Below, one piece after another: positions 1-44,122 of a DNA stretch of 45,749 nucleotides (position 1 is its first letter; each line of letters begins with the position of its first letter). The translations under genes were made by a program, and so were the position numbers. Origin of the DNA: a virus (taxonomy: Duplodnaviria; Heunggongvirae; Uroviricota; Caudoviricetes); IMG/VR virus record IMGVR_UViG_2534681762_000010, one strand, 5' to 3'. The notes beneath the pieces are model-generated. The model made no database searches and was not told the DNA's origin. It saw only the letters and a program-made list of their open reading frames with translations.

Positions 1-1284
1 TTACAGACTTCTGGAAGGTTGCGCAGCTCTTACAACACGCGGTTGATCTTCCGCAGCGTCTTCCAGCGCACTTAAATCACGGTCTTTCACCTCTGGCATT
101 TTCAGCGCAGAGATTAAACCAATTACTGGATATGCCATGATCATAATGGCGATCGGATACCAGGATTCCGTCATGGTGCAGAAAATACCCGCCAGGATAG
201 GACCAAAACCGGAAGCGATAAGACCACCAATTTCTTTAGAAATAGCCATCCGGGTAAAGCGGTTTTTACAGCCGAACATTTCTGCCATGGTAATGTTTTC
301 CAGAGCAAATAATCCCAGCACCGCACAGTTATGAATCACAATCAGTGCAACCATAATGGTGCTCGGGGCATAGCTTTTATCTACAATGATAGAAAGCATT
401 GGCCATGCCAGCACAATCGCGGAGGTATTCATAATAATATACGGGATCCGGCGACCAATTTTATCGGATAACCAACCAAGGAACGGAATGGTCATAAAGC
501 CGAGAATCGAACTAATCATCAATGCATCTGTTGGAATTGCTTTGTTAAACAATAACGTCTGCACTAAATAGCCTGCAAGGAAAGTCTGAATTAACCCGGA
601 GTTACCCGCCTGACCAAAACGCAGCCCTGTTGCCAGCCAGAAGGATTTGCTCTGGAACATGCTACCAGCAGGTGCAGGTTTTGCTGTGGGTTGGTTGCTG
701 TCATTAACCTTCTCAAAGACCGGGCTTTCTTTCAGATTCATACGTAACCAGATAGCAAAGACCATCACGACAACGCTCGCCAGGAACGGTATACGCCATC
801 CCCACGCCAGCAGTTCCTCTTTACTGAGAATGAAGAACATAAAGGCCCAGATTGCCGTTGCGCTCAAGGTTCCGCAGTTAGTTCCCATAGCTACAAATGA
901 GGAGATAATTCCGCGCTTACCTTTTGGTGCATATTCCGCCAGCATCGTACCGGCACCGGAAATTTCCGCACCTGCACCCAACCCCTGAATAATACGCAGC
1001 GTCACCAGCAAGATGGGGGCAAAAACACCAATCTGTGCATAGGTCGGTAACACACCAATTAAGGTGGTACAGATCCCCATCATGGTGATGGTAATAAAGA
1101 GCACTTTTTTACGCCCTATTCTGTCGCCCATTTTGCCGAAAATAAATGCTCCGACAATACGCGCCACATAACCTGCACCGTAGGTTCCCATTGCCAAAAT
1201 TAACGCCATTGCCGTTGATGATTCAGGAAAAAATATTTCATGAAACACTAACGCTGCGCCGAGCGAATATAACTGGAAATCCAT
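1..1284 (-). CDS. ydfJ: MFS (metabolite:H+ symporter family) transporter YdfJ; N-terminal part of first TM helix missing, in-frame stop directly upstream of the ATG
   Basis: 427-aa multi-TM ORF with MHS-family motifs (GRKK, WGWRIPF, SDKIGRR); begins MDFQLY where family members have about 25 more N-terminal residues; stop at 1288-1290 in frame upstream. Confidence 0.8.
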   Translation of the reverse strand: MDFQLYSLGAALVFHEIFFPESSTAMALILAMGTYGAGYVARIVGAFIFGKMGDRIGRKKVLFITITMMGICTTLIGVLPTYAQIGVFAPILLVTLRIIQGLGAGAEISGAGTMLAEYAPKGKRGIISSFVAMGTNCGTLSATAIWAFMFFILSKEELLAWGWRIPFLASVVVMVFAIWLRMNLKESPVFEKVNDSNQPTAKPAPAGSMFQSKSFWLATGLRFGQAGNSGLIQTFLAGYLVQTLLFNKAIPTDALMISSILGFMTIPFLGWLSDKIGRRIPYIIMNTSAIVLAWPMLSIIVDKSYAPSTIMVALIVIHNCAVLGLFALENITMAEMFGCKNRFTRMAISKEIGGLIASGFGPILAGIFCTMTESWYPIAIMIMAYPVIGLISALKMPEVKDRDLSALEDAAEDQPRVVRAAQPSRSL

Positions 1285-1887
1285 AATTCACAGGTGTTTT
1301 TTCCCATCCTGTGGTTTCCTTGGCGTTTTCTAGGTTTTTTCAGATAGTTGCATTTTTTAAAAAGCATCCTAAGTTCGATCTCAGTGTCTATCTGGGGCCT
1401 ATTTCTGTCCCATATATGCCCCAAAAAAACTCCCCAACAGATAAGTAGTTTCTTCATGGATTTACGCATAAAATCAATAACGGCTGGAAATCATTCAATA
1501 CTCGCACTATCGAAAAATTTACCAGCCAACCGCAGCACGTTCTTGCATAAGGCGTGTCTGCGGTTTTTCAACTATTCAGATACATCACTCCCATCACATT
1601 CATTCCTCCGCATCAAAGGCATATAGGCTATATCACCTTGATATTTTTCTTCTTCAGATAAAAACTGTTATCTATGTATACTTTTAAACCCAATCCGTGT
1701 AGAGTCTCTGCATAAGATAGTTTGCAGTTGCCACTTCAGTTTGCGCCATAAACCGCCTGATTTTTGCCGCCACCTGTTAGCATTCCTGTATACCTGAAAC
1801 GACAATGTTTATCTACGAACTTTAAGAACACCCAGGATAAAAATTGTCAACTATATCATATATAACACATTACTAATTCGAGGCTAT

Positions 1888-2001
1888 ATGAACAGCATAC
1901 TGATAATCACTTCGCTCCTTATCATATTCAGCATTTTTAGTCATGCTCTAATAAAATTAGGGATTGGCATATCCAATAACCCAGACAAAACCGATGTATA
2001 A
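1888..2001 (+). CDS. small hydrophobic ORF (37 aa, single predicted TM helix), hypothetical
   Basis: ATG at 1888 with GAGG 4 nt upstream; [37 protein letters not shown]; below ORF-track size cutoff. Confidence 0.25.
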
Positions 2002-2069
2002 GTCAACATACCCTGAATCAGACATACGATATCGCAATGAAAATCGATAATATTTTAAGGAATATCTTC

Positions 2070-2303
2070 ATGAAATCAAAAGACACCCTAAAGTGGTTCC
2101 CTGCGCAACTTCCTGAAGTAAGAATTATCCTAGGGGATGCTGTAGTGGAAGTAGCAAAACAGGGAAGACCTATCAATACCAGAACATTGCTTGATTACAT
2201 TGAAGGAAACATAAAGAAAAAGTCATGGCTGGATAACAAAGAATTATTACAAACAGCGATATCAGTTCTTAAAGACAACAAAAATTTAAATGGTAAAATG
2301 TAA
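2070..2303 (+). CDS. ydfK: YdfK/YnaE-family prophage cold-shock-associated protein
   Basis: MKSKDTLKWFPAQLPEV... recognised as YdfK-like; AAGGAA 8 nt upstream of ATG 2070 (track start 2037 lacks an SD). Confidence 0.7.
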   Translation: MKSKDTLKWFPAQLPEVRIILGDAVVEVAKQGRPINTRTLLDYIEGNIKKKSWLDNKELLQTAISVLKDNKNLNGKM

Positions 2304-2621
2304 TATAATAAACTTACTTTTTTATCATTTTTCCACTTTAACAACATTTTGCTCCACTTTTCCACGACCAAACAACTTGAAATCTGGTTAAAATAACACG
2401 CAACACTATTCTTCTTCCTTGAGTCCGCCCGGAACTCGAAAAACAAACCGAGTTAAGGCCATTTTTCACAAAATCGATTTTGGGTCTCACCAAAATTACG
2501 GGATTGCATACGCATTCGTTTATTTTTGAACGTGTACATACAAATATGTACAAAAATAATCAAAATTATTTTCTGAGATGCATTATGATATGTACACCAA
2601 TTTCGTATAGAAGTTCTCACT

Positions 2622-3212
2622 ATGTCTCGAATTTATGCTTACTGTCGGGTATCAACTCTGGAACAGACAACCAAAAATCAACGTCGGGAAATCGAAAGTG
2701 CAGGTTTTAACATCAAATCTCAGCAAATAATTGAAGAACAAATTAGCGGCTCAGCAGCAACCAGTGAGCGTCCTGGTTTTAACCAGTTGCTTGATCGACT
2801 GAAAAGAGGTGATGAATTGATTGTCACAAAACTGGATCGCCTCGGTTGTAATCCAATGGATATCAGTAAAACGGTGGAACAACTGACCAAAGCAGGTATC
2901 AAAGTGCATTGCTTAGCATTGGGGGGCGTTGACCTGACCAGTCCACCTGGAAAAATGATGATGCAAGTAATTTCAGCAGTCGCTGAATTTGAGCGAGACC
3001 TTTTACTTGAGCGTACTCATTCAGGGATATTAAAAGCACGGGGCGCAGGAAAGCGATTTGGTCGCCCACCTGTGTTAAATGATGAACAAATACAGAGGGT
3101 ACTAGAGCAAATTAAGTCAGGTATAAATATAAGTGACATTGCCCAAGAATTCAAAACCTCGCGGCAAACCATTTTAAGAGCTAAAGCAAAAAATCAGACA
3201 CCTGATATATAA
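2622..3212 (+). CDS. pin: Pin/Gin/Hin-family serine DNA invertase
   Basis: 196 aa, N-terminal YCRVSTLEQ catalytic serine motif, resolvase core, C-terminal HTH; convergent with the tail-fibre gene. Confidence 0.9.
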
Positions 3213-3483
3213 AAATAATCTCGGTGTGAGATTCCTTACGTTTTACAAGCCCCCCTTCCTAGCCTTAAATGGAAAGATACCTCTAATTATAGAATTTATA
3301 TATCTTACCCTACGGAAGGGCTGGCCATTCAATATCCGGTGCAGTTGATGTATCAACACGGTTCAGCAACACCCGATACTTTTTCCATGCGGCCAGTAAC
3401 GCTTTCTCTTCCTCCGTTGCGATCCCCAGCTCAACAACAGTCTGAACGTACCAGGAACAGCCTCCTTCAGGGCTTGAAGGATA

Positions 3484-6400
3484 TCAATGTTCGCTTCCTG
3501 TTAACTGCCGGACAAGTGCAACCAGTTCGCTTACCTGATTTTCCAGAGTGCTGATCCGGGTGCCTGCTGTTGCCAGATTTTCACGTAGCGTTGTGCTTTC
3601 CTCTTCCAGCGCGGTAACGCGAGCATCTGTTTCACGGGCGACCTGAACAAGTAAGCCAGTCACGGCGGCGTAGTCAACATTCAGATAACGTGTTTCTTCA
3701 CGTAATTCATTGCCGTCAACCGTTGGTCCCTGCAACTCTTCACCGTAATGAGTAAACGATCCCACAGCTTCTGGTATCGCCTCCATTACTTCCTGTGCAA
3801 TAACGCCAGCATAAGGCATCCCGTTTTCCTTGAGCGTGTAGGTGTATCCGTTCATTTTACGGATTGCTTTCGTCGCGTCGCTGATAACGAGAATATCGTC
3901 TTTAAGGTCGCGGTCTGATGACTGATTCAGCGTTGTGCAATTAATAGCGCCATTTACATCAAACAACTGGCCTGCTGACGTTTTTTGCGCATAAAACAGA
4001 TACGCAGCAGACGTTCCAACCTCAAAAACGTTTTGTCGATCACTTGATCCCCATACTTTTGCGGCAAATGATAGTTCTGTATTACCTAAGTTCTGTAAAA
4101 CAAAACGATTGCCAGTCCCTGTTTGTTTTGTAAGAGTTAAATCTACAGTTGAGTTAACCTCATCCTTGTTGATAGTGAGCGCCTGCGCTTTAGCCCCGTT
4201 AACAGCACCTGTTTTGAGTTGAACCGCGCCGTCATTACCATTTAACAGTATCTCAGCTCCGCTAAAGAAATTTTTTAGCGTTAGCATCTTACTTACGCCG
4301 ACTGATGAACCCAACGCCCACGCGAGAGAATTACCGGTGCTATCAAACCCACGTACAAAGCAATCCATTTTGCTATAGTCTGACGTGCTTCCAAGGACAT
4401 CAATCCGCCCTCCGCCAGATTTTACCGGGTTAGATGTGGTTAATGACCTGACAGCAAGATCGGTAGATGAATTGAGATCGTCTACTGTTAGTAATTTCTT
4501 CCATTCCTGCGTCGTTCCATTTTCAATTGTTCTTCCCCAAAAACCGGAATTGCGGCCTCCGAACTGCACAGCATAATTTTTACTAAATTGAACATGAATG
4601 CCGCCAAGAACCATAGAGCCTGCCGGGCCGTTTGTACTGCCTGCGATTGGTCTAAATTTGTCGACGTTATCAGTATGCTGAGCGTTCCAGTCATGACCTG
4701 TTAATGTTGCGATTCCTGAGTTAGCTGTAATTAACCCAGACGCTTTAAGATTTTGCACATCAATTCTGTCGTTTGCGAAATTATATGCAATTGCGTTACT
4801 AACGCTTCCGGCATCATCATAATCGCGTTTCTGAATAAACCAGTCGCCAGCATTAGCAATGAGAGTATAAGTAGGCGTGTTAGCCGGGCGATCTGTTTCA
4901 TTAAATCTTATTGCTGGGTTAGCGCTCCTTATTTGTAAAGGTTTTTCAACCGTTGATTTCAGTATCGCACTATCTACAATTAAATTACCTTCTGAGTTAA
5001 GGTTTAGATATTTTGAAGCACCAGTTGAACCATCGTATGTAAACCTTATTGTTAATTGACCTGGCTCATTTGATAAAGTTTCAACATACATATCAGCACC
5101 AAGACGCACAGTGCTGTCAGTTGCTAACAGTCTTGTATGGAGAATTCCACTAGATGTGTATGTACTGGTCGAATCACTATATCTATCAAGAAATAGACTG
5201 TTAAGTTGAGGGCTGTTGTTCCTACCTAAGCCAAGATTAGTTCTGGCACCATCAATAGTTGCCGCACCAGTACCACCATGAGAAACATCAAGCGGTATCC
5301 ATTTTTTTTGTGTGTCGCTGTAACACCCCCATGTTGATCCGGTTAAACCCAGGCGCATGGATTTATCATGGTTATATAACCATGTTTCGCTATTCCATTG
5401 GTCAAGACGGTCCACTTCATTTTTGCGAGCGTGGCGTGTCCATTGCGGGCCTATTGTCGGATTCCAGCGATAAGTATAAAGCGAGCGCGTAGCCCATCCC
5501 TGAAAAACACCTGTATACGCTGGTGTTCCATCTACCTGACTAATAAACCCCGTAAGACTGCTTTCACCGGATGCAATCGATGGAAAGCCTTTTGCATTAC
5601 TCATAATGCGCATAAATCCGATATACCCTGATGGGTTGCCGGAAATATCAGGACAATCACGCGGGGCTGAGCCAAGACCGATATTATCGCCAACAATTAC
5701 TTGCGCCTGGTTGCGATAATTAAGTGCGTCCGCCGCAGATTTCGCCGCGTTTGTTTCACTGGATTTAGCATTAGTTTCGCTGGCTTTAGCGTTTGTTTCG
5801 CTGCTCTTTGCTGCTGCCTCGCTATTTTTCGCGTTGGTTTCTGATTTTTTGGCTGCTGTCGCGGAGTTTGCCGATGCAGTTTGTGAGTCTGCTGCCGCCT
5901 GTGCGCTGTTATCCGCATTCGTCTCAGACGTTTTTGCGGCCTTCGCGGAATTTCCTGCCGCCGTTGCCGAGGAAGCGGCACTGCTGGCGCTCGAGGCAGC
6001 GCTCGTTTCTGATGATTTTGCCGCCTCTTTTGAAGCCGACGCATCCCGGGCTGAGGTGGCAGCTTCTGACGCTTTCGTGGTCGCGGTGGATGCAGAAGTG
6101 GCTGCTGATTGTTGTGATGCTGCAGCATTCGTTTCTGACGTTTTCGCCGCACCGGCACTGGTGGCTGCCGCGCTTTTTGAGGACTCTGCTGCGGCAGCAC
6201 TTTTTAATGCTTCAGTGGCCTTTGTTGATGCCGTTCCTGCGCTGGAAGACGCTGACTGAGCCGACGACGCGGCCTGTCCGGCTGACGTGTTGGCTGCGCG
6301 TGCTGAGCCTGCAGCATCAGTCGCATGGGTTGCCGCCTCACGGGCTGATGTGCTGGCATCGCTGGCTGACTTCTTCGCGGCTGCCGTGTCCTGTGCCACT

Positions 6401-6756
6401 GCGGACGCGTTACGCGCCACCTCTTCCACCATCAGTTCAAAACGGCGCAGTGCCTCCGGACGGGCATCATCCTCCGTCATGGCACCGAGAAAATCATTCA
6501 GCGTACCGGGTTGAGAATCTTCATACACGGTGATGGTCCCGGCATGTGACGGCGGGAATCCCTCCACCAACAGAATAACGCTGTACTGGCCGTGCTCAAC
6601 GTCCATGCTGTAACGCCCTGCTTCATCCGGATTTTCAGATGCCACCGTGTTCACCACCACCGTGGTGCTGTTACGTTTTGCTTTCAGCTGGATTGTGCAG
6701 TTCTGTACCGGTTTACCTGCACCGTCTTTCAGTACACCTGAAATCTTTACTGCCAT
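3484..6756 (-). CDS. stf: side tail fibre (lambda Stf-like N-terminus, Ala/Ser/Thr repeat shaft, C-terminal S74-type intramolecular chaperone domain)
   Basis: N-terminus MAVKISGVLKDGAGKPVQNCTIQLKAKRNSTTVVVNT matches lambda Stf; C-terminus ...SSDRDLKDDILVISDATKAIRKMNGYTYTLKENG... resembles autocleaving chaperone domain; ATG at 6756 (track start 6762 is GTG). Confidence 0.9.
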   Translation of the reverse strand: MAVKISGVLKDGAGKPVQNCTIQLKAKRNSTTVVVNTVASENPDEAGRYSMDVEHGQYSVILLVEGFPPSHAGTITVYEDSQPGTLNDFLGAMTEDDARPEALRRFELMVEEVARNASAVAQDTAAAKKSASDASTSAREAATHATDAAGSARAANTSAGQAASSAQSASSSAGTASTKATEALKSAAAAESSKSAAATSAGAAKTSETNAAASQQSAATSASTATTKASEAATSARDASASKEAAKSSETSAASSASSAASSATAAGNSAKAAKTSETNADNSAQAAADSQTASANSATAAKKSETNAKNSEAAAKSSETNAKASETNAKSSETNAAKSAADALNYRNQAQVIVGDNIGLGSAPRDCPDISGNPSGYIGFMRIMSNAKGFPSIASGESSLTGFISQVDGTPAYTGVFQGWATRSLYTYRWNPTIGPQWTRHARKNEVDRLDQWNSETWLYNHDKSMRLGLTGSTWGCYSDTQKKWIPLDVSHGGTGAATIDGARTNLGLGRNNSPQLNSLFLDRYSDSTSTYTSSGILHTRLLATDSTVRLGADMYVETLSNEPGQLTIRFTYDGSTGASKYLNLNSEGNLIVDSAILKSTVEKPLQIRSANPAIRFNETDRPANTPTYTLIANAGDWFIQKRDYDDAGSVSNAIAYNFANDRIDVQNLKASGLITANSGIATLTGHDWNAQHTDNVDKFRPIAGSTNGPAGSMVLGGIHVQFSKNYAVQFGGRNSGFWGRTIENGTTQEWKKLLTVDDLNSSTDLAVRSLTTSNPVKSGGGRIDVLGSTSDYSKMDCFVRGFDSTGNSLAWALGSSVGVSKMLTLKNFFSGAEILLNGNDGAVQLKTGAVNGAKAQALTINKDEVNSTVDLTLTKQTGTGNRFVLQNLGNTELSFAAKVWGSSDRQNVFEVGTSAAYLFYAQKTSAGQLFDVNGAINCTTLNQSSDRDLKDDILVISDATKAIRKMNGYTYTLKENGMPYAGVIAQEVMEAIPEAVGSFTHYGEELQGPTVDGNELREETRYLNVDYAAVTGLLVQVARETDARVTALEEESTTLRENLATAGTRISTLENQVSELVALVRQLTGSEH
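5709..6414 (-). repeat. degenerate tandem repeats encoding the Ala/Ser/Thr/Lys-rich shaft of Stf
   Basis: repeated units such as gtttcgctgg...ttagc at DNA level and AAKTSETNA / KSSETNAK repeats in the protein; produce long spurious ORFs in other frames. Confidence 0.6.
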
Positions 6757-6765
6757 ATTCACCCC

Positions 6766-6794
6766 ACAAAAAAGCCCGCCTGAACCAGCGGGCT
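6766..6794 (-). terminator. putative intrinsic terminator between lom and stf
   Basis: hairpin AGCCCGC-N8-GCGGGCT followed by T-run on minus strand. Confidence 0.45.
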
Positions 6795-6820
6795 GTCATA
6801 ACACTGTGTTACCTGGCTAA

Positions 6821-7420
6821 TCAGAACTTATAACCAACACCCACGATGAACCCGTCAGTGCGCCAGTCGCCACTGCCGGAGCCTTCATAAGCGACATCAA
6901 TGGCCACCGATTCGGTCGGGTTAAACTGCACGCCAGCTCCCCACGCCAGAGACGTGTTGCTGTGGTGACCGTCATCACTTCCGGTCAGCACATCATGCGT
7001 TTTCCCCTTGTTGTCAGTTACGCGGAGATAATCCCCGGAGAAAGTCGACACACGGCTGTAAGCCACACCCGCCATCGCATACGCGCTGAACCATTCATTC
7101 ACGCGCACAGACGGTCCCGCCATCACGCTGAACCAGCGGTTACGCACGGAATCCTCATGCCAGCGGGTATCGCTGTAATGCGTTTTTTGCTCATCTTCAG
7201 CGTTGGCATAACTGAATGACGTAATCAGCCCCAGCGTGTCCGTAAACTCATAACGGTATTTCACGTTAATCCCGTTCAGATTATCGCTGCCGGGAGCGTT
7301 CGTACGGGCATGAAGATACCCTGCGCTCAGTGTGGCCTGCTGCTCAGACGCCCATGCAGGCGCACCGGATACGGCCAGACAGATGGCTGCGGACAAAATG
7401 GCTGCATAAACTTTACGCAT
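6821..7420 (-). CDS. lom: Lom/Ail/PagC-family outer-membrane beta-barrel protein
   Basis: 199 aa, signal peptide, C-terminal ...GVGYKF typical of Ail/Lom family; position between J and stf as in lambda. Confidence 0.85.
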   Translation of the reverse strand: MRKVYAAILSAAICLAVSGAPAWASEQQATLSAGYLHARTNAPGSDNLNGINVKYRYEFTDTLGLITSFSYANAEDEQKTHYSDTRWHEDSVRNRWFSVMAGPSVRVNEWFSAYAMAGVAYSRVSTFSGDYLRVTDNKGKTHDVLTGSDDGHHSNTSLAWGAGVQFNPTESVAIDVAYEGSGSGDWRTDGFIVGVGYKF

Positions 7421-7487
7421 AATTACCTCTCGCTTTTCTGCAATAAAAAAGGCGCCATTTCTGGCGCCCGTATTGGGGTTATAAAAT

Positions 7488-10400
7488 TCAGCTGATACTG
7501 ATGCCTGCGGTGGCTTTCTTCATCACCACAACCAGCAAATCGCTGATACTTGCTGTGGGATACCAGTCATTTACCAGCCATGCTGACACCGAAAACTCCA
7601 GCGTCATGTGGCCGCGACCAGCTGGCATATCAATAACACCACTGTAAATCAGCGTATTATCCAGCGCGGTATGGTTATAAATTTCAGCACCGTTTTTCCG
7701 TACTATCAGGCGGCATGAGGAGTAGATATCAGTATGATCTTGCTCATGTTTAGCGCCACTGAATGCCACCGCCGGGATAACAATTTGCCGGTCAAACGGC
7801 TGATCGTCATAAACCCTGACGGTAATGGTCCCTGATGGCCACCGCTCCGGTGCACGGGAGTCCCGGGGGAAAGCCTTACCCACTGTTTTGACAATATCAC
7901 CTTCAATCTGGTTGGCTGACAGTTTCCCCTTAATCTGACAGTTCTCATTAATCGTGACATTGTTGAGCGTCCCGGCGTTCGCATTCACACTGCCACTGAT
8001 ATCTGCATTTTTAGCGGTCAGCTTTCCGTCCGGTGTCAGGGAAAATGCCGGAGGATTACCGCCGCTGGTAATGGTGGGAGCCGTCAGGCGTTTGAGGAAC
8101 ACGTCGTTCATGAATATCTGGTTGCCCTGCGCCACAAACATCGGCGTTTCATTCCCGTTTGCCGGGTCAATAAACGCGATACGGTTAGCGGCAACCAGAA
8201 ACTGGCTCAGTTTGCCTTCCTCTGTATCCTCCATGCTGAGGCCAAGTCCCGCGACATAATGTTTGCCGTCTTTGGTCTGCTCAATTTTGACAGCCCACAT
8301 GGCATTCCATTTATCGTTGGCATCCTTCCACTCTTTCGAAAACTCATCCAGTCTGCTGGCGTTATCCTCCGTCAGGTCGACTTTTTCCAGCAACTCCTTG
8401 CCGAGATGAGATTCGGTTATCTTGCCTTTGAAAAAATCCAGGTAACCTTCCGCATCATCGCTCGCCCGACCGACAGCCTCCACGAATGCCGATTTGCCAA
8501 CGGTGTTCACACTGCGAACGTAAAAATAATAATCATGGCCCGGCCTGATATTGATACTGGCAGCTATCCAGTACAGCGCCGTGCCAAGATAGCGGGCTGT
8601 GGTTTCAACCTGCCTGATATCAGCAATCCGTTTTTCCGAGAACCAGAACTCAAACTGTACCGTCGGGTCATAAACCGCAAGATGCGGCGTGGCGGTTATC
8701 TGAAAATAGCCCGGTGTCAGCTCAATCCGAGACGGCGCTGCCGGTGCGGCAATCCGGAACGATACCGATGCCGGATCGCCCTGCTGTCCCCACGCATTTA
8801 CCGCCCGGACTGTCAGCCTGTAGTTCCCCAGCGCCAGTTGCGTGAAGCGGTATGTGGTTTCCGTCGTCCGGGCCGTGCTGACCAGCCGCTCACTGCCGTC
8901 ATCCGCTGCCACGGTCAGGCGAAGCATAAAGCTCACCCCCTTCACCACCTTCGGCGTGTCCCAGCGGGCCAGCACCTGATATTCCCCGCTGTCTGCGGAG
9001 ACTTCGGCAGTCAGGTGCTGTACCGCTGGCGGCGTGACACCATTCACCGTGCCGCTCTGGTCGCTGTCAAAGTGCGCCCCGTTATCCACGATGGCCTCTT
9101 TTTCAGGTACATGCTGCACGGCAGTGATGGCATACGTGCCGTCGTCGTTCTCACGGATACTCACGCAGCGGAACAGGCGCTGGCGCAGCGTCGGCAGCTT
9201 CAGCCCCCACACGCTGTATTCTGCAACGCCGTCAGGAACCCGGCTCACTTTTACCTTCACGCCGTCGGTGACGGACTGAACCTCCACGCTGACCGGATTG
9301 CCATTTCCGTCAACCAGGCTTATCAGCGTGGTGCCGGAGGATGGCAGCGTGATTTCACGGTCGAGCGTCAGCGTCCGGGTCTGGCTGTTCACCGCCAGCA
9401 CGCGACCACCGGTGCTGATACCGGCATAGTCATCATCACAGATTTCAATAACATCGCCCGGCACATGGCGAAGCCCTTCCGCACCCACGCTGAAATCCAC
9501 GGTCTGCGTTTCCAGCAGTTCCGTTTTAATCAGCCACAGCCCGGCGCGGTGTGCCTGCCCCCGACTGGTACAACCAAAGGCATCCATCTTCGTGACATTA
9601 CGACCGTAACGGGCAATGGCCTGCGTATCTTCAACAAGCTCTGTCGCCGTCTCCCAGCCGTTGTTCGGGTCAATCCAGTTCACCTCAACGGCATTATGGC
9701 GGTCCTTCAGGGCGCTGAAGCTGTAGCGGAACGGCGCGCCATCATCCGGCATCACCACATTACTGCGGTTATAGGTCCACACCTTATCCGACTGTCGGTC
9801 CTGCACGAACGTCAGCGTCTGCCCGTTCCATACCGGCATACAGCGCATCGCCGAGCAGAAATCACTGAGCACATCCCACGCCTTGCGCTGTGTGGTCAGG
9901 TAAGCGTTACAGGTGATGCGCGGCTCCGTGCCGCCAAAGCCGTCCGGCACCGACTGATCGCAATTCTGGCCGATGACATACAGCGCCCATTTATCCACAT
10001 CCGCCGCACCAAGACGTTTCCCCATGCCGTAGCGCGGGTGGGTCAGCATATCCCACAGACACCAGGCCATATTGTTGCTGTATGCTGGCTTAAACGTTCC
10101 GTCCCAGATACCGCTGTATTGCCGCGTCTGCGGGTTATAGTTCGACGGCACCTGCAGAATGCGCCCGCGAAGATGATAATTACGGCTCACCTGCTGGCTG
10201 CCGAACTGCTCCGAGTCCACCTGCACACCGACCAGTGCCGTGTTCGGGTAGCACTGTTTCACATCGATGATTTCGGTGTATGATGACCAGAGCGTTTTGT
10301 TCTGCAGCTGGTCTGTGGTGCTGTCCGGCGTCATCCTGCGCATCCGGATATTAAACGGGCGCGGCGGCAGGTTATCCACCACCACCGAGGCCAGATACTG

Positions 10401-29883: not shown

Positions 29884-30154
29884 AATGTTACCGTAATATG
29901 TGAGTATCCATCGACTAGACACTAAGCAAAAAAGCTCCCGAAGGAGCCTTCATTTTCACTTTCTTAAATCTAACGACAGATGGCTAACATTTAAGTATTG
30001 TGAAATATTATCAAATGTAATCATCATTGATTTACAAAAGATACATTTTGCCCCGAAAGGATTTCTGTCAGAAACATCAAAAGATGATGTTCTATACTGA
30101 GAACCATGGCAACACGGGCATCTGAAGTGAATATGGTTTGTAATATTTTCTACC

Positions 30155-30367
30155 TCAAAGTGCCACTACATGAACAGCTGCAGGGCCTTTAGGTCCGTTC
30201 TCAATACCAAATTCGACTTCCTGATTCTCAGTTAACGTTTTGAAATCGTTGCTCTGAATAGCTGAGAAATGCACAAACACATCTTTGCTACCATCTTTCG
30301 GCGTGATGAAACCAAAACCTTTTTCAGGGTTAAACCATTTCACTAAACCAGTCATTTTGTTAGACAT
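30155..30367 (-). CDS. cspI: cold-shock protein (CspI/CspB-like)
   Basis: [23 protein letters not shown]... with RNP motifs; long AT-rich 5' UTR upstream. Confidence 0.75.
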
Positions 30368-30730
30368 CATTATTACCTTTTGAAGAAGTTAGCCCTTGGG
30401 CAGAATGGTCCGAAAAAAAATATCAGAGAGAAAAACCAACAAGGAAATCTCAAGAGGTACAAATAATAAAATTATAACAATGACTGCTTCAGATAATTTT
30501 GTAACAAACCAGAACACCATTAACGCATGATTAACCAACCATAGCAAGGATTACTTTTGTAAAGAAAAACACACGAATGAAACAATAGCTTTATTTATTA
30601 ATAAAACGTGTCATTCTGTCTAATGACCTTTTATCTTACCCTTAAGATTTCAAGGATTTTGACTCATGGAAGAGTCCTTTTTATTTAAATTTCACATTCA
30701 GCGCTAAAAATAATCCGATTTAATATTAAT

Positions 30731-33571: not shown

Positions 33572-34045
33572 ACAGCGAATCAGATCAAATAAAACGCACA
33601 TTTGTTAACATTTACACAAAGTCTGCGTGGGATATTCTGAAAGAATATCCATAATGTGGAGAGAATCTATTGAAGTGCATGGTGCCGGGTGCCTCCCGGT
33701 GAATTCAGTACCAGCACCTGAATCCGCGATTATCCCATATACCTACTCGCTGATTGCCCCTCCGCACAGGGGGATTCACCATGCCAGTTTCTTTTAACAA
33801 ACTCCCCGCAAACCAGAGAACAGTCAACCGCCTGAATTGTGAAGTATTTAAAAATTTCTCCCGCTAACTGATACCCGGCTAACAGTCTGGCGTTTTCTTT
33901 TTCAGCAACGGGAAAGCAACAACCACCACACCCGCCACCAGCACACCGTCAGCCAGCACTGACATTATCCGGCTGCTGCAATGCCATTCACAAAAACAGT
34001 AAGCAATCACTTTTTACCGTAACAGGTGATAATCCAGATATGTAT

Positions 34046-34509: not shown

Positions 34510-34586
34510 TGGCGCGCTGTACTGGATTCGAACCAGTGACCGATTGCTTAGAAGGCAATTGCTCTGTCCGGCTGAGCTAACAACGC
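34510..34586 (-). tRNA. tRNA-Arg (anticodon UCU)
   Basis: GCGTTGTTAGCTCAGCCGGACAGAGCAATTGCCTTCTAAGCAATCGGTCACTGGTTCGAATCCAGTACAGCGCGCCA folds as cloverleaf; anticodon loop CTTCTAA; 3' CCA encoded. Confidence 0.9.
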
Positions 34587-34686
34587 TGAATACCGATAAT
34601 GGACCGCCATCGGGGACCCGCCCCCGCACCAACAACCCTGTTATCGTGTCGTCTGCTCTTCCTGATAAGCTAATGGCGGTTTGTGA

Positions 34687-34762
34687 TGGTGGCCCTTGCT
34701 GGATTTGAACCAGCGACCTGGCGATTATGAGTCGCTCGCTCTCACCACTGAGCTAAAGGGCC
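34687..34762 (-). tRNA. tRNA with anticodon CAU, most like tRNA-Ile2 (lysidine type; ileX/ileZ-like), alternatively tRNA-Met
   Basis: GGCCCTTTAGCTCAGTGGTGAGAGCGAGCGACTCATAATCGCCAGGTCGCTGGTTCAAATCCAGCAAGGGCCACCA; close to E. coli ileX. Confidence 0.9.
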
Positions 34763-37898: not shown

Positions 37899-38054
37899 TT
37901 ACTCCTCAGGTTCGTAGACTGTGAAGACAGCGACCTCCGTCTGGCCGGTTCGGATTCGTACCTCGCAGAGGTCTTTCCTCGTTACCAGTGCCGTCACTAT
38001 GACGGTTAAACAGATGACGATCAGGGCGATTAACATCGCCTTTTGCTGCTTCAT
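37899..38054 (-). CDS. hokD: Hok-family type I toxin (HokD/RelF-like); in-frame upstream extension to 38111 is mok-like
   Basis: MKQQKAMLIALIVICLTVIVTALVTRKDLCEVRIRTGQTEVAVFTVYEPEE; AAGGAG SD. Confidence 0.85.
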   Translation of the reverse strand: MKQQKAMLIALIVICLTVIVTALVTRKDLCEVRIRTGQTEVAVFTVYEPEE

Positions 38055-38640
38055 AGCCTGCTTCTCCTTGCCTTTCGGCACGTAAGAGGCTAACCTAGAT
38101 TTGCCGTTCATAGATTGAGCCTCAGATTAATGTTAAGCGTCTTGCAGGACGCGTAATGTTAACTGGGGCTTTTCTCTATCTGCCTTTGGTGTTCATGCCT
38201 GAGACAGATAGCCTCAAGCACCCGCAGCCATTCTACTTAACTCCCGTCACCTGGCCAATATAAAATCAATCAGAAAGGCGATCCATAAGAACAACAGCAA
38301 GACAATAAATTGCCATTACAGCTGCAATAGCCAGCGCACATTTGAGAACCAGCACGACAACCTCCTGTATTGGACGTACACCAGTCCTGATAAATATGAG
38401 GCTCTCTCATCATTGATGAGATACAACTATTGGGTATAGTTTCTGTGATTTTGTTCTGTAGAAATGGAACACAACAACCAGTAACCACCAGCGATTCTTT
38501 AAATACGCCAAATCCGACGCAAGCTAACCTTCTAGTCCGCTTTGGGCGAAGACCGGACGTTCGATAGGTGTGAACTAGTAACTTTAAAAACATTTAATTA
38601 CCAGTAAAAAAACAAGAATATACTATCACTTTTCCAATTT

Positions 38641-42104: not shown

Positions 42105-42173
42105 ATATTAGGCTTAGCCTAATGAAATTGTCAATAGGCTATGCCTAATACATCGAGAGTAGGGATTGCCTAA
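42105..42173 (+). promoter_or_regulatory. right operator/promoter region: three dyad operators plus pR
   Basis: TTAGGCTTAGCCTAA (42108-42122), ATAGGCTATGCCTAA (42134-42148), GTAGGGATTGCCTAA (42159-42173), centres about 25 bp apart; minus-strand TTGACA (42129-42134) - 18 bp - TAATAT (42105-42110). Confidence 0.6.
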
Positions 42174-42201: not shown

Positions 42202-42678
42202 ATGCTTAGTGGTAAAGACTTAGGCCGAGCGATAGAGCAGGCCATTAACAAAAAAATTGCATCAGGAGCCGTCAAATCAAAGGCGGAAATCGCACGTCAT
42301 TTCAAAGTCCAACCACCATCAATCCATGACTGGATTAAGAAAGGTTCGATAAGTAAAGACAAACTTCCAGAACTATGGCGTTTCTTTTCTGATGTGGTTG
42401 GTCCAGAGCATTGGGGGCTTAACGAATACCCCATACCAACCCCATCCACTTCAGATACAAAAAGTGAACTTTTAGACATAAACAGCCTTTATCAAGCCGC
42501 CTCTGATGAAAAAAGAGCAATTGTGGCTTTCATCTTATCTGGAAATGCTACGGAGCCTAGTTGGGTTGATCATGACGTTCGCGCCTACATTGCCGCAATG
42601 GAAATGAAGGTAGCTAACTATCTGAAAAATCAAGAATCAAAACGGAAAAGCCAGAACATCACCAAGACAGGAACTTAA
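42202..42678 (+). CDS. prophage repressor (XRE-family HTH, RacR-like)
   Basis: 158 aa, HTH KAEIARHFKVQPPSIHDWIKKG; flanked by operator clusters on both sides; AGGAG SD. Confidence 0.75.
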   Translation: MLSGKDLGRAIEQAINKKIASGAVKSKAEIARHFKVQPPSIHDWIKKGSISKDKLPELWRFFSDVVGPEHWGLNEYPIPTPSTSDTKSELLDINSLYQAASDEKRAIVAFILSGNATEPSWVDHDVRAYIAAMEMKVANYLKNQESKRKSQNITKTGT

Positions 42679-42771
42679 ACTTATATGGCCCGACGGGAAA
42701 TTCCTAGTTCCCGTTAGTTAACTCCTACTACCTCTCCCACAAACCATCACCTATTAGGTTGCGCCCAAATT

Positions 42772-42815
42772 ATTAGGAATAGCCTATTGACAAGTAATTA
42801 GGCATTTCCTATAGT
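42772..42815 (+). promoter_or_regulatory. pL-like early-left promoter with overlapping operators
   Basis: TTGACA (42787-42792) - 17 bp - TATAGT (42810-42815); operator-like TTAGGAATAGCCTA and TTAGGCATTTCCTA overlap it. Confidence 0.6.
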
Positions 42816-44069: not shown

Positions 44070-44122
44070 TTTCTGGTGACGTTTGGCGGTATCAGTTTTA
44101 CTCCGTGACTGCTCTGCCGCCC
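44070..44122 (+). ncRNA. dicF: DicF small RNA (ftsZ translation inhibitor)
   Basis: TTTCTGGTGACGTTTGGCGGTATCAGTTTTACTCCGTGACTGCTCTGCCGCCC followed by TTTTT, matching the 53-nt DicF sequence as I recall it; located just upstream of dicB as in Qin. Confidence 0.7.

Follow-up and report, generated by a model that had tools for sequence, protein, structure and literature searches.

How a gene annotated as a DNA invertase came to lie beside a phage tail fibre gene that offers it nothing to invert is the question raised by the left end of IMG/VR virus record IMGVR_UViG_2534681762_000010, a 45,749-nucleotide stretch of Caudoviricetes DNA that we call the window. The two genes are a small serine recombinase of the PinQ/PinR family, here called pin, and a lambda-Stf-like side tail fibre gene (stf) that carries an S74-type chaperone domain at its C-terminus. 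An initial annotation, made from the sequence alone, had correctly placed about 270 bp between them (3213-3483, 271 bp) and proposed that a fibre module replacement had left a Pin-type invertase without a substrate. Our analysis confirms the replacement but leads to a different account of the recombinase. We consider it likely that pin is the stranded end of a Tn3-family transposon and that the S74 fibre was rebuilt separately, the two being unrelated mosaic pieces that lie side by side. The features on the recombinase side are as follows.

2622-3212, plus strand: pin, small serine recombinase of 196 amino acids with Pfam Resolvase and HTH_7 domains, a PinQ/PinR-family allele from a Tn3-family tnpR
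2540-2621, plus strand: res-region remnant of Tn3-family type, tnpR-proximal (from the BLASTN start at 2540 and a MAFFT alignment)
2547-2555, 2570-2578 and 2601-2609: degenerate res half-sites TGTACAAAA, TTTCTGAGA and TTTCGTATA
2533-2560: promoter-like site from a promoter scan, overlapping the res remnant
2534-2551: dyad GTACATA-N4-TATGTAC, overlapping the res remnant and unique in the window
3220-3257, plus strand: degenerate right terminal inverted repeat, aligned to the 38-bp repeat CTTAGCGTGGGATATTTTCCGTTTTCCAAGCGGACCCC with 24 of 38 positions matching by hand count

The recombinase reading frame is intact, as the initial annotation had stated, with strong matches to Resolvase (E=1.6e-37, 129 bits) and HTH_7 (44.5 bits) and with Ser11 (codon 2652-2654) inside a YCRVSTLEQ motif. 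A serine-nucleophile domain followed by a C-terminal helix-turn-helix (HTH) is common to all resolvases, and is thus not diagnostic of the Din invertases (Gin, Hin, Cin, Pin), which resemble one another closely and can substitute for one another. At the amino acid level the window protein shares 84-85% of its residues with PinQ and PinR and only 37% with the e14 invertase PinE, and this, together with the transposon relationship described below, speaks against the Pin-type identity first assigned to it. Among solved structures it scores 98.8 bits with Gin and 84 bits with gamma-delta resolvase, the slightly higher score to Gin suggesting a separate TnpR lineage. A single-protein search of genome contigs returned only close Escherichia copies and one distant homologue (30% identical).

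Outside the prophage clade, the closest relatives, at about 80% identity, are the TnpR proteins of a 3.8-kb Tn3-family transposon. Besides four large prophage-type clusters, the best 120 clusters in the homologue database search were of another type that occurs in Escherichia, Salmonella, Providencia, Morganella, Vibrio, Shewanella and others, with many plasmid records among them; the 21 homologues that were aligned are 70-98% identical to the window protein. One of these proteins (P0013) is equal in length, at 196 amino acids, with 80% amino acid identity and 82% nucleotide identity to the window gene. In five of the six places shown, its unit consists of a transposase of 994 amino acids with DUF4158 and DDE_Tnp_Tn3 domains, divergent from the 196-residue resolvase and separated from it by 160 bp; Tn3 and gamma-delta likewise have divergent tnpA and tnpR genes with res between them. 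A repeat scan covering three loci (L018, L020 and L022) found the unit flanked in each by 38-bp inverted repeats of the form GGGG...TAAG (GGGGTCCGCTTGGAAAACGGAAAATATCCCACGCTAAG), 95-96% complementary, and one copy (L022) shows a 5-bp TAATA target duplication. The transposon is 3815 bp long (for example NZ_CP012500.1 28579-32393 and locus L018 2823-6637) and nameless in the annotations seen. It is common on Escherichia plasmids, with complete copies on 186 plasmids, and more distant homologues of the recombinase also adjoin Tn3-family transposase genes in Shewanella (three copies in one genome), Vibrio and Providencia.

The homology extends beyond the coding sequence on both sides. BLASTN aligns positions 3097-3808 of the 3815-bp transposon with window positions 2540-3250 (82% over 712 nucleotides), and the remainder of the match, to the outer end of the repeat at 3257, was followed by eye. 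Upstream of pin, three of the transposon's five half-sites are kept, and each of the window's TGTACAAAA, TTTCTGAGA and TTTCGTATA differs by two mismatches from its counterpart TGTCCGAAA, TTTCGGATA or TTTCGTACA. We take the transposon half-sites to resemble the CGTCCGAAA type of the Tn3 and gamma-delta res sites. The res homology is limited to the tnpR-proximal 82-100 nucleotides; for the dyad that the transposon has on the tnpA side of res, TGACCGAAA-N8-TTTCGGACA, the window offers no equivalent. On the downstream side, CTTAGCGTGGGATATTTTCCGTTTTCCAAGCGGACCCC lies directly 3′ of tnpR in L018-L022, and all sequences diverge past its outer CCCC; the similarity of the window stops at about this same outer end, where independent transposon copies part from each other. 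No tnpA remnant was found in the window (best tblastn E=0.4), and since the alignment to the transposon is a single one, the window holds no left repeat. Homology of the gene, of res and of the repeat together identify the pin block as the end of a Tn3-family transposon that comprises part of res, tnpR and the right repeat, and this end sits about 50 bp past the stop codon of the tail fibre assembly gene (tfa).

Two further observations concern this segment. A metagenome scaffold in ENA that resembles a colicin/microcin plasmid (L021, 5900-6637) carries res, tnpR and the right repeat without tnpA or the left repeat; its truncated end still encodes the catalytic arginine, which shows that such resolvase ends of this transposon have become stranded more than once. 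In the window itself, a 16-nucleotide inverted repeat (2564-2579 and 2717-2732, 15 of 16 positions) encloses the ribosome-binding site and start codon of pin, and its arms might form a stem in the transcript; in K-12 the arms match less well (about 13 of 16, read from the alignment), so the repeat may be due to chance.

The window protein also departs from the transposon resolvases at a catalytic position. Residue 76 is cysteine (codon TGT, 2847-2849) where the transposon tnpR has CGT (Arg), and alignments pair it with R71 of gamma-delta resolvase and the equivalent arginine of Gin, the DRLGR motif reading DRLGC. Cysteine is found in all four prophage-type clusters, whereas arginine occupies the position in 113 of the 120 best homologue clusters, in PinE and in an Erwinia phage homologue, and R71 is retained in Tn3 and gamma-delta. 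Of the catalytic set Y6, R8, S10, D36, R68 and R71 (Tn3 numbering), the window protein has Y7, R9, S11 and R73. The set is incomplete at two positions: D36 is Glu in the aligned prophage and transposon-type homologues (Asp in PinE), and the change of R71 to Cys76 is confined to the prophage clade. Tn3 resolvase carrying R71A or R71K still binds normally, but it no longer recombines and its cleavage is reduced about 1000-fold (PMC2794168). The predicted recognition helix is the same in the window protein and PinQ, and the HTH region nearly matches that of the transposon TnpR (TSRQTILRA against TTRQTILRV). The ratio of nonsynonymous to synonymous substitution rates (dN/dS) is 0.37-0.38 between prophage alleles compared with 0.15-0.19 to the transposon copy, a pattern that fits constraint that has been relaxed yet is still present.

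If pin were a local invertase, crossover sites should lie nearby, and the initial annotation had pointed to degenerate gix-like half-sites at about 2440, 3153 and 3494 while seeing no convincing inverted pair. The latter observation holds around the locus and throughout the window, but the half-sites themselves are no better than chance: each matches 8-9 of 11 positions on one half and 1-6 on the other. A window-wide scan for full gix-type sites, a search that the annotation had proposed for gix and pix sites, likewise stayed at chance level: its best site scored 17 of 22, the mean in Markov simulations was 16.7, and 55% of the simulations reached 17. The e14 crossover sequence had no match in the window at up to three mismatches, and the AAACCNNGGTTT pattern matched once where 1.6 matches were expected; as a positive control, the crossover-site search recovered the e14 sites at 1791-1806 and 3604-3619 of locus L017. 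Inverted repeats at the locus and in the whole window amounted to chance-level pairs, apart from one 23-nucleotide pair considered below, and no invertible segment was found. Both orientations beside pin were not seen among genomes, the top matches to the S74 context being single collinear pieces in the sample of records inspected. Kirigo et al. likewise describe PinQ as having no local segment and database inversions as occurring only in e14 (PMC12529663).

Three candidates that emerged from these searches were rejected. The dyad GTACATA-N4-TATGTAC was considered as a crossover site with a distant partner, but there is no second copy in the window and it is explained as part of a degenerate res subsite. 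The homologue in Erwinia phage LS-2018a (57% identical in the protein alignment, 59% by tblastn) was considered as a local invertase, but no convincing inverted repeats lie on either side of it, and its genomic surroundings differ. The 23-nucleotide inverted repeat (42128-42150 and 42771-42793, 22 of 23 positions complementary) encloses an open reading frame (ORF) for a racR-type repressor of 158 amino acids (42202-42678), and with TTGACA facing outward in each arm it looks like an operator-promoter pair of OL/OR type. It was discarded as an invertible switch; it belongs to a Rac-type immunity region (racR, ydaS, ydaT), which is collinear in the sampled E. coli genomes.

The genomic distribution of pin shows that its position next to a fibre does not depend on which fibre is there. 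The ynfT-ydfK-pin block occurs in 2808 of 5426 E. coli genomes, and a query extending from ynfT through ydfK and pin to the 3′ end of tfa is collinear, at a coverage of at least 80%, in 2680 of 2810 E. coli records. In K-12 Qin, phage 2H10 and strain 2011C-4251, ydfK-pin is convergent with one intact tfa-stf pair, and these three loci have no second tip, second tfa or inverted crossover sites. The same block thus stands beside three different fibre tips, that of these three loci, that of the window and that of phage Tritos, and the proposal that the replacement deprived the recombinase of its substrate is contradicted by the single, non-invertible fibre sets beside the same block. PinQ of Qin and PinR of Rac in K-12 share with the window protein its length of 196 amino acids, Cys76 and the ynfT-ydfK-pin arrangement convergent with tfa-stf at the prophage end; K-12 Qin has an intact tfaQ-stfQ, whereas the window has a distinct pin allele and only an S74-tipped fibre with a tfa remnant.

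The comparison with Qin and e14 suggested by the initial annotation thus yields two distinct arrangements: Qin has the same module as the window and no invertible segment, while e14 has a true crossover pair. PinE is, like the window protein, a Resolvase and HTH_7 small serine recombinase near fibre genes. Perfect 16-nucleotide inverted crossover sequences, separated by 1797 bp, bound the e14 P segment, and from the right-hand sequence it is 67 nucleotides to pinE downstream, so that the 5′ end of the invertase gene abuts its segment; the window has no such sequences. The window pin gene has the opposite orientation, its 3′ end facing the fibre and its direction convergent with the fibre operon, and no second tip or tfa accompanies it. 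The resemblance to the TnpR gene of the 3.8-kb transposon is much more complete, with the same length and with homology running into the upstream res subsites and the downstream 38-bp repeat; the window differs in lacking tnpA, the left repeat and the tnpA-proximal dyad, in its degenerate half-sites and repeat, and in the change of arginine to cysteine.

Some details of the pin allele belong here as well. Relative to K-12 Qin, ydfK and the ydfK-pin spacer (2037-2621) are about 98-99% identical, while the pin coding sequence (2622-3212) is 90% identical with a synonymous divergence (dS) of about 0.21, which points to a mosaic breakpoint near the start of pin and to the window allele as a separate lineage. 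This allele is present at 99% identity or more in 89 E. coli records. Strain 2011C-4251 also has it, at 99% identity, at the DLP12/ompT site.

On the fibre side, four features define what was exchanged.

3484-6762, minus strand: side tail fibre gene, 1092 amino acids from GTG, or 1090 from the probable true start, ATG at 6756 (lambda-Stf-like)
3487-3918, minus strand: S74-type C-terminal intramolecular chaperone domain, residues 949-1092, the Pfam profile beginning at residue 949
3310-3444, minus strand: tfa 3′ remnant, 44 codons and a stop, without a start codon
3447-5914, minus strand: replacement cassette, the distal ~810 fibre residues including S74 plus 37 nucleotides past the fibre stop

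That the fibre is a single protein of about 1090 residues with an S74 C-terminus was rightly recognized from the start. Its N-terminus matches phage_tail_N in Pfam (residues 3-136, E=2.4e-71), PHROG 6578 and the tail fibre protein of PDB 9e7m (E=4e-51), and Peptidase_S74 matches residues 949-1000 with 50.3 bits against a cut-off of 22 (E=3e-13). The motif S949-D-R-D-L-K954 aligns with SSDRRIKKDI in the distal subunit of a long tail fibre (PDB 6f45). From the endosialidase family we take S949 and K954 to be a putative Ser/Lys autocleavage dyad. Antisense and out-of-frame ORFs of up to 246 amino acids cover 5700-6540 on both strands, over the Ala/Ser-rich fibre repeats (about residues 130-350, for example KSSETNAKASETNAKSSETNA), and these overlapping ORFs are almost certainly artefacts of repetitive GC-rich sequence.

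The statement that the window lacks tfa needs to be qualified. There is no intact gene, the full-length tfa of about 190 codons expected downstream of stf being absent, but the 44-codon remnant is unmistakable: it corresponds to positions 87-130 of the 131 in Pfam Caudo_TAP (E=6e-21, 75 bits), matches PHROG tail fibre assembly families, and is 78% identical by tblastn to residues 147-191 of 2H10 Tfa. The Prokaryotic Genome Annotation Pipeline (PGAP) places a tfa pseudogene at this position in a near-identical genome (NZ_CP151050.1; strain 20KM2222). Beyond 3310-3444 the window contains no further tfa-like sequence. In a DNA comparison with phage 2H10, which has a conventional stf-tfa-pin order, homology covers 1444-3446 and 5915-8000, and the gap between the two identifies 3447-5914 as a foreign cassette carrying the S74 tip. 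The cassette replaced the distal part of stf and most of tfa, its first three quarters, leaving the 44-codon scar; to this extent the inference that a fibre module had been replaced is borne out.

Two other phages show that such joints are not peculiar to this locus. The side tail fibre of mEp460 (NC_019716) has a cassette that matches that of the window at 94% identity across 79% of its length. The tfa 3′ scar after it is the same as well, but in mEp460 dinI and int come next, without the ydfK-pin block. mEp460 is therefore a phage isolate with this S74 fibre and no intact tfa, which supports the view, drawn from the S74 family, that the intramolecular chaperone would make a separate Tfa needless. 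In Tritos (L004, 6592-6830) a third kind of fibre tip precedes a tfa 3′ scar beside pin; the junction there is displaced by about 25 nucleotides from that of the window (at window position ~3421) and marks a second, independent replacement through the same conserved tfa end. Together the scars in the window, mEp460 and Tritos mark the conserved 3′ end of tfa as a recurrent recombination joint. Homologous exchange of stf-tfa between lambdoid phages and Rac or Qin has been shown experimentally and is consistent with a joint in tfa (PMC3945230). The fibre swap is ordinary lambdoid mosaicism.

The setting of the locus is that of a lambda-like prophage integrated at the Qin site, with the following neighbours.

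1-1284, minus strand: truncated ydfJ, the Qin attachment site, at the left end of the window
2037-2303, plus strand: ydfK-like cold-shock gene to the left of the recombinase block; PGAP calls it ydfK in related genomes, and its identity to the Qin ydfK of K-12 is about 98-99%
6821-7420: lom, beyond the fibre ORF, followed by the J tail-tip gene

Rightward from ydfJ the order is ynfT, ydfK, the recombinase ORF, the 271-bp gap, the fibre ORF, lom and J. Among 5426 complete E. coli genomes, 80 have the arrangement across 1300-7500 with an identity of about 95%, and PGAP names the recombinase gene pinQ in them. The remaining window has a Rac-type immunity region, DicF, a sok antisense RNA of hok/sok type and a cspA-type leader. 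The Rfam and ARAGORN matches in this part are a cspA-type thermoregulator leader (30094-30525, minus), STnc100 (33623-33813, minus), the sok antisense RNA (38049-38223, minus), DicF (44071-44122, plus) and, at 34510-34762 (minus), tRNA-Arg(tct) and tRNA-Met.

We propose that the locus arose in two unconnected steps. In an ancestral lambda-like phage, the right-hand end of a Tn3-family transposon, with part of res, tnpR and the right repeat, would have been left behind some 50 bp beyond tfa. Rac/Qin-type prophages would now carry it in their b region, within a fixed block made up of ynfT, ydfK and pin. Presumably lost from the block are tnpA, the left repeat and, in res, the tnpA-proximal dyad, where by analogy with Tn3 and gamma-delta crossover would take place; one catalytic arginine of the stranded resolvase is now cysteine. 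These losses would leave pin without a substrate in cis and indicate that it never controlled fibre switching. The Pin protein most likely still binds the kept subsites over its own promoter, repressing its own synthesis as TnpR does, and most likely has little or no strand-exchange activity. In a separate event, an S74-chaperone cassette would have replaced the distal part of stf and the first three quarters of tfa by recombination, with the tfa 3′ end as the joint; the S74 chaperone is expected to fold the fibre trimer and then cleave itself off at Ser949/Lys954, making a separate Tfa unnecessary. That the fibre swap did not orphan the recombinase follows from the occurrence of ydfK-pin beside a single non-invertible fibre set in K-12 Qin, 2H10, Tritos and the 2808 genomes carrying the block, and mEp460, in which the S74 cassette and the tfa scar occur without pin, supports the independence of the two from the other side.

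How firmly this account can be held depends on several alternatives and on evidence that weighs against it. That the gene is a fibre-switching invertase of Gin/Pin type, whose invertible tfa/tip segment was deleted on arrival of the S74 cassette, was the initial reading, and it draws on the location beside fibre genes, the small serine recombinase fold, the PHROG 125 label "DNA invertase" and a cassette swap and tfa scar that are real. The same gene nevertheless occurs next to intact stf-tfa pairs with no second tfa or tip and no inverted crossover sites, runs convergent with the fibre operon whereas the 5′ end of pinE abuts its segment, and is homologous to a Tn3-family transposon together with its flanks; this reading is already contradicted, and we regard it as scarcely credible. 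The protein could instead act as an invertase in trans on segments elsewhere in the host, such as e14 P between stfP and stfE, with a role in phage defence through changed surface or fibre proteins. Here lies the main counter-evidence to our account: a 2025 paper (PMC12529663) reports that when K-12 PinQ is overproduced, inversion of the e14 P segment goes up from about 30% to 88% and cells are protected against phage T2, with the protection being P-segment dependent. As reported there, the shift in orientation of the P segment implies catalysis on an invertase-type site, and the similarity of the window protein to PinQ, including the predicted recognition helix, would let the argument carry over. 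It is only in this form, as published action in trans, that a cryptic substrate elsewhere, as the initial annotation also envisaged, can be entertained, for the window holds no such site. Yet the same source describes the P segment as locked in pinE and pinE pinQ mutants, and deletion of pinE locks it even though pinQ and pinR are intact, such that catalysis by PinQ alone is not demonstrated. The distance to PinE (37%), the cysteine at the R71-equivalent position, the resolvase ancestry, half-sites of the TGTCCGAAA type that are unlike pix or gix, and the absence of pix- or gix-like sites from the window also tell against it, as does the presence of the pin block in 2808 of 5426 genomes compared with 379 records with the e14 P-pinE region at 95% identity or more, a rough tally in which inverted copies split into separate pieces. 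We therefore judge inversion in trans to be unlikely. The same paper gives PinQ as 38% identical to PinE and, in the several sections consulted, makes no mention of Tn3-type relatives or of a cysteine at the R71 position.

Other roles in trans start from the resolvase ancestry itself. TnpR proteins of Tn3 and gamma-delta repress both tnpA and tnpR, and the window protein might bind the res of 3.8-kb transposon copies on plasmids and repress their transposase or help to resolve cointegrates. Its HTH region, near-identical to that of the transposon TnpR, the abundance of the transposon on Escherichia plasmids and a dN/dS below 1 favour this; Cys76 argues against efficient resolution, and we hold the possibility to be distinctly remote. 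Also improbable, in our estimate, is that the Cys76 resolvase no longer recombines at its own res and has been repurposed, being kept in half of E. coli genomes as a DNA-binding partner or regulator. Such a protein might modulate Din invertases such as PinE, or bind the res of incoming Tn3-family transposons. If true, modulation of PinE would reconcile the effect of PinQ on e14 P with the lock imposed by deletion of pinE, and either role would mean that the fossil of a transposon in one prophage influences a recombination system located elsewhere, an undescribed kind of cross-talk.

Our preferred reading, a stranded transposon end next to a separately rebuilt fibre, has weak points of its own. 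An intact ORF in thousands of genomes and a dN/dS below 1 suggest that the protein is still under some selection. The loss of site I is argued from position and from analogy with Tn3 and gamma-delta; the direction from transposon to phage is drawn from context and the distribution of arginine and cysteine, not from a rooted tree; and a terminal repeat matching at 24 of 38 positions would be weak alone, though its position and the one continuous alignment with the gene support it.

The gene, the absence of a local segment and S74-tipped lambdoid fibres are already annotated or published. A transposon origin is modestly new, explaining a long-standing oddity of what is another allele in a known family; in a literature coverage that was incomplete, we found nothing linking PinQ or PinR to a Tn3-family origin or noting the change of arginine to cysteine. 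In annotation pipelines and recent papers, PinQ and PinR are taken to be DNA invertases whose presence marks an invertible locus for fibres or defence. That no invertible segment has ever been found beside them is explained if the gene is the tail end of a transposon, lacks a catalytic arginine and lies in a block that remains unchanged beside at least three fibre tips. The presence of pin next to a fibre is consequently unsafe evidence for host-range switching, and on its fibre side the locus illustrates how receptor-binding modules are exchanged through a recombination joint in the conserved 3′ end of tfa.

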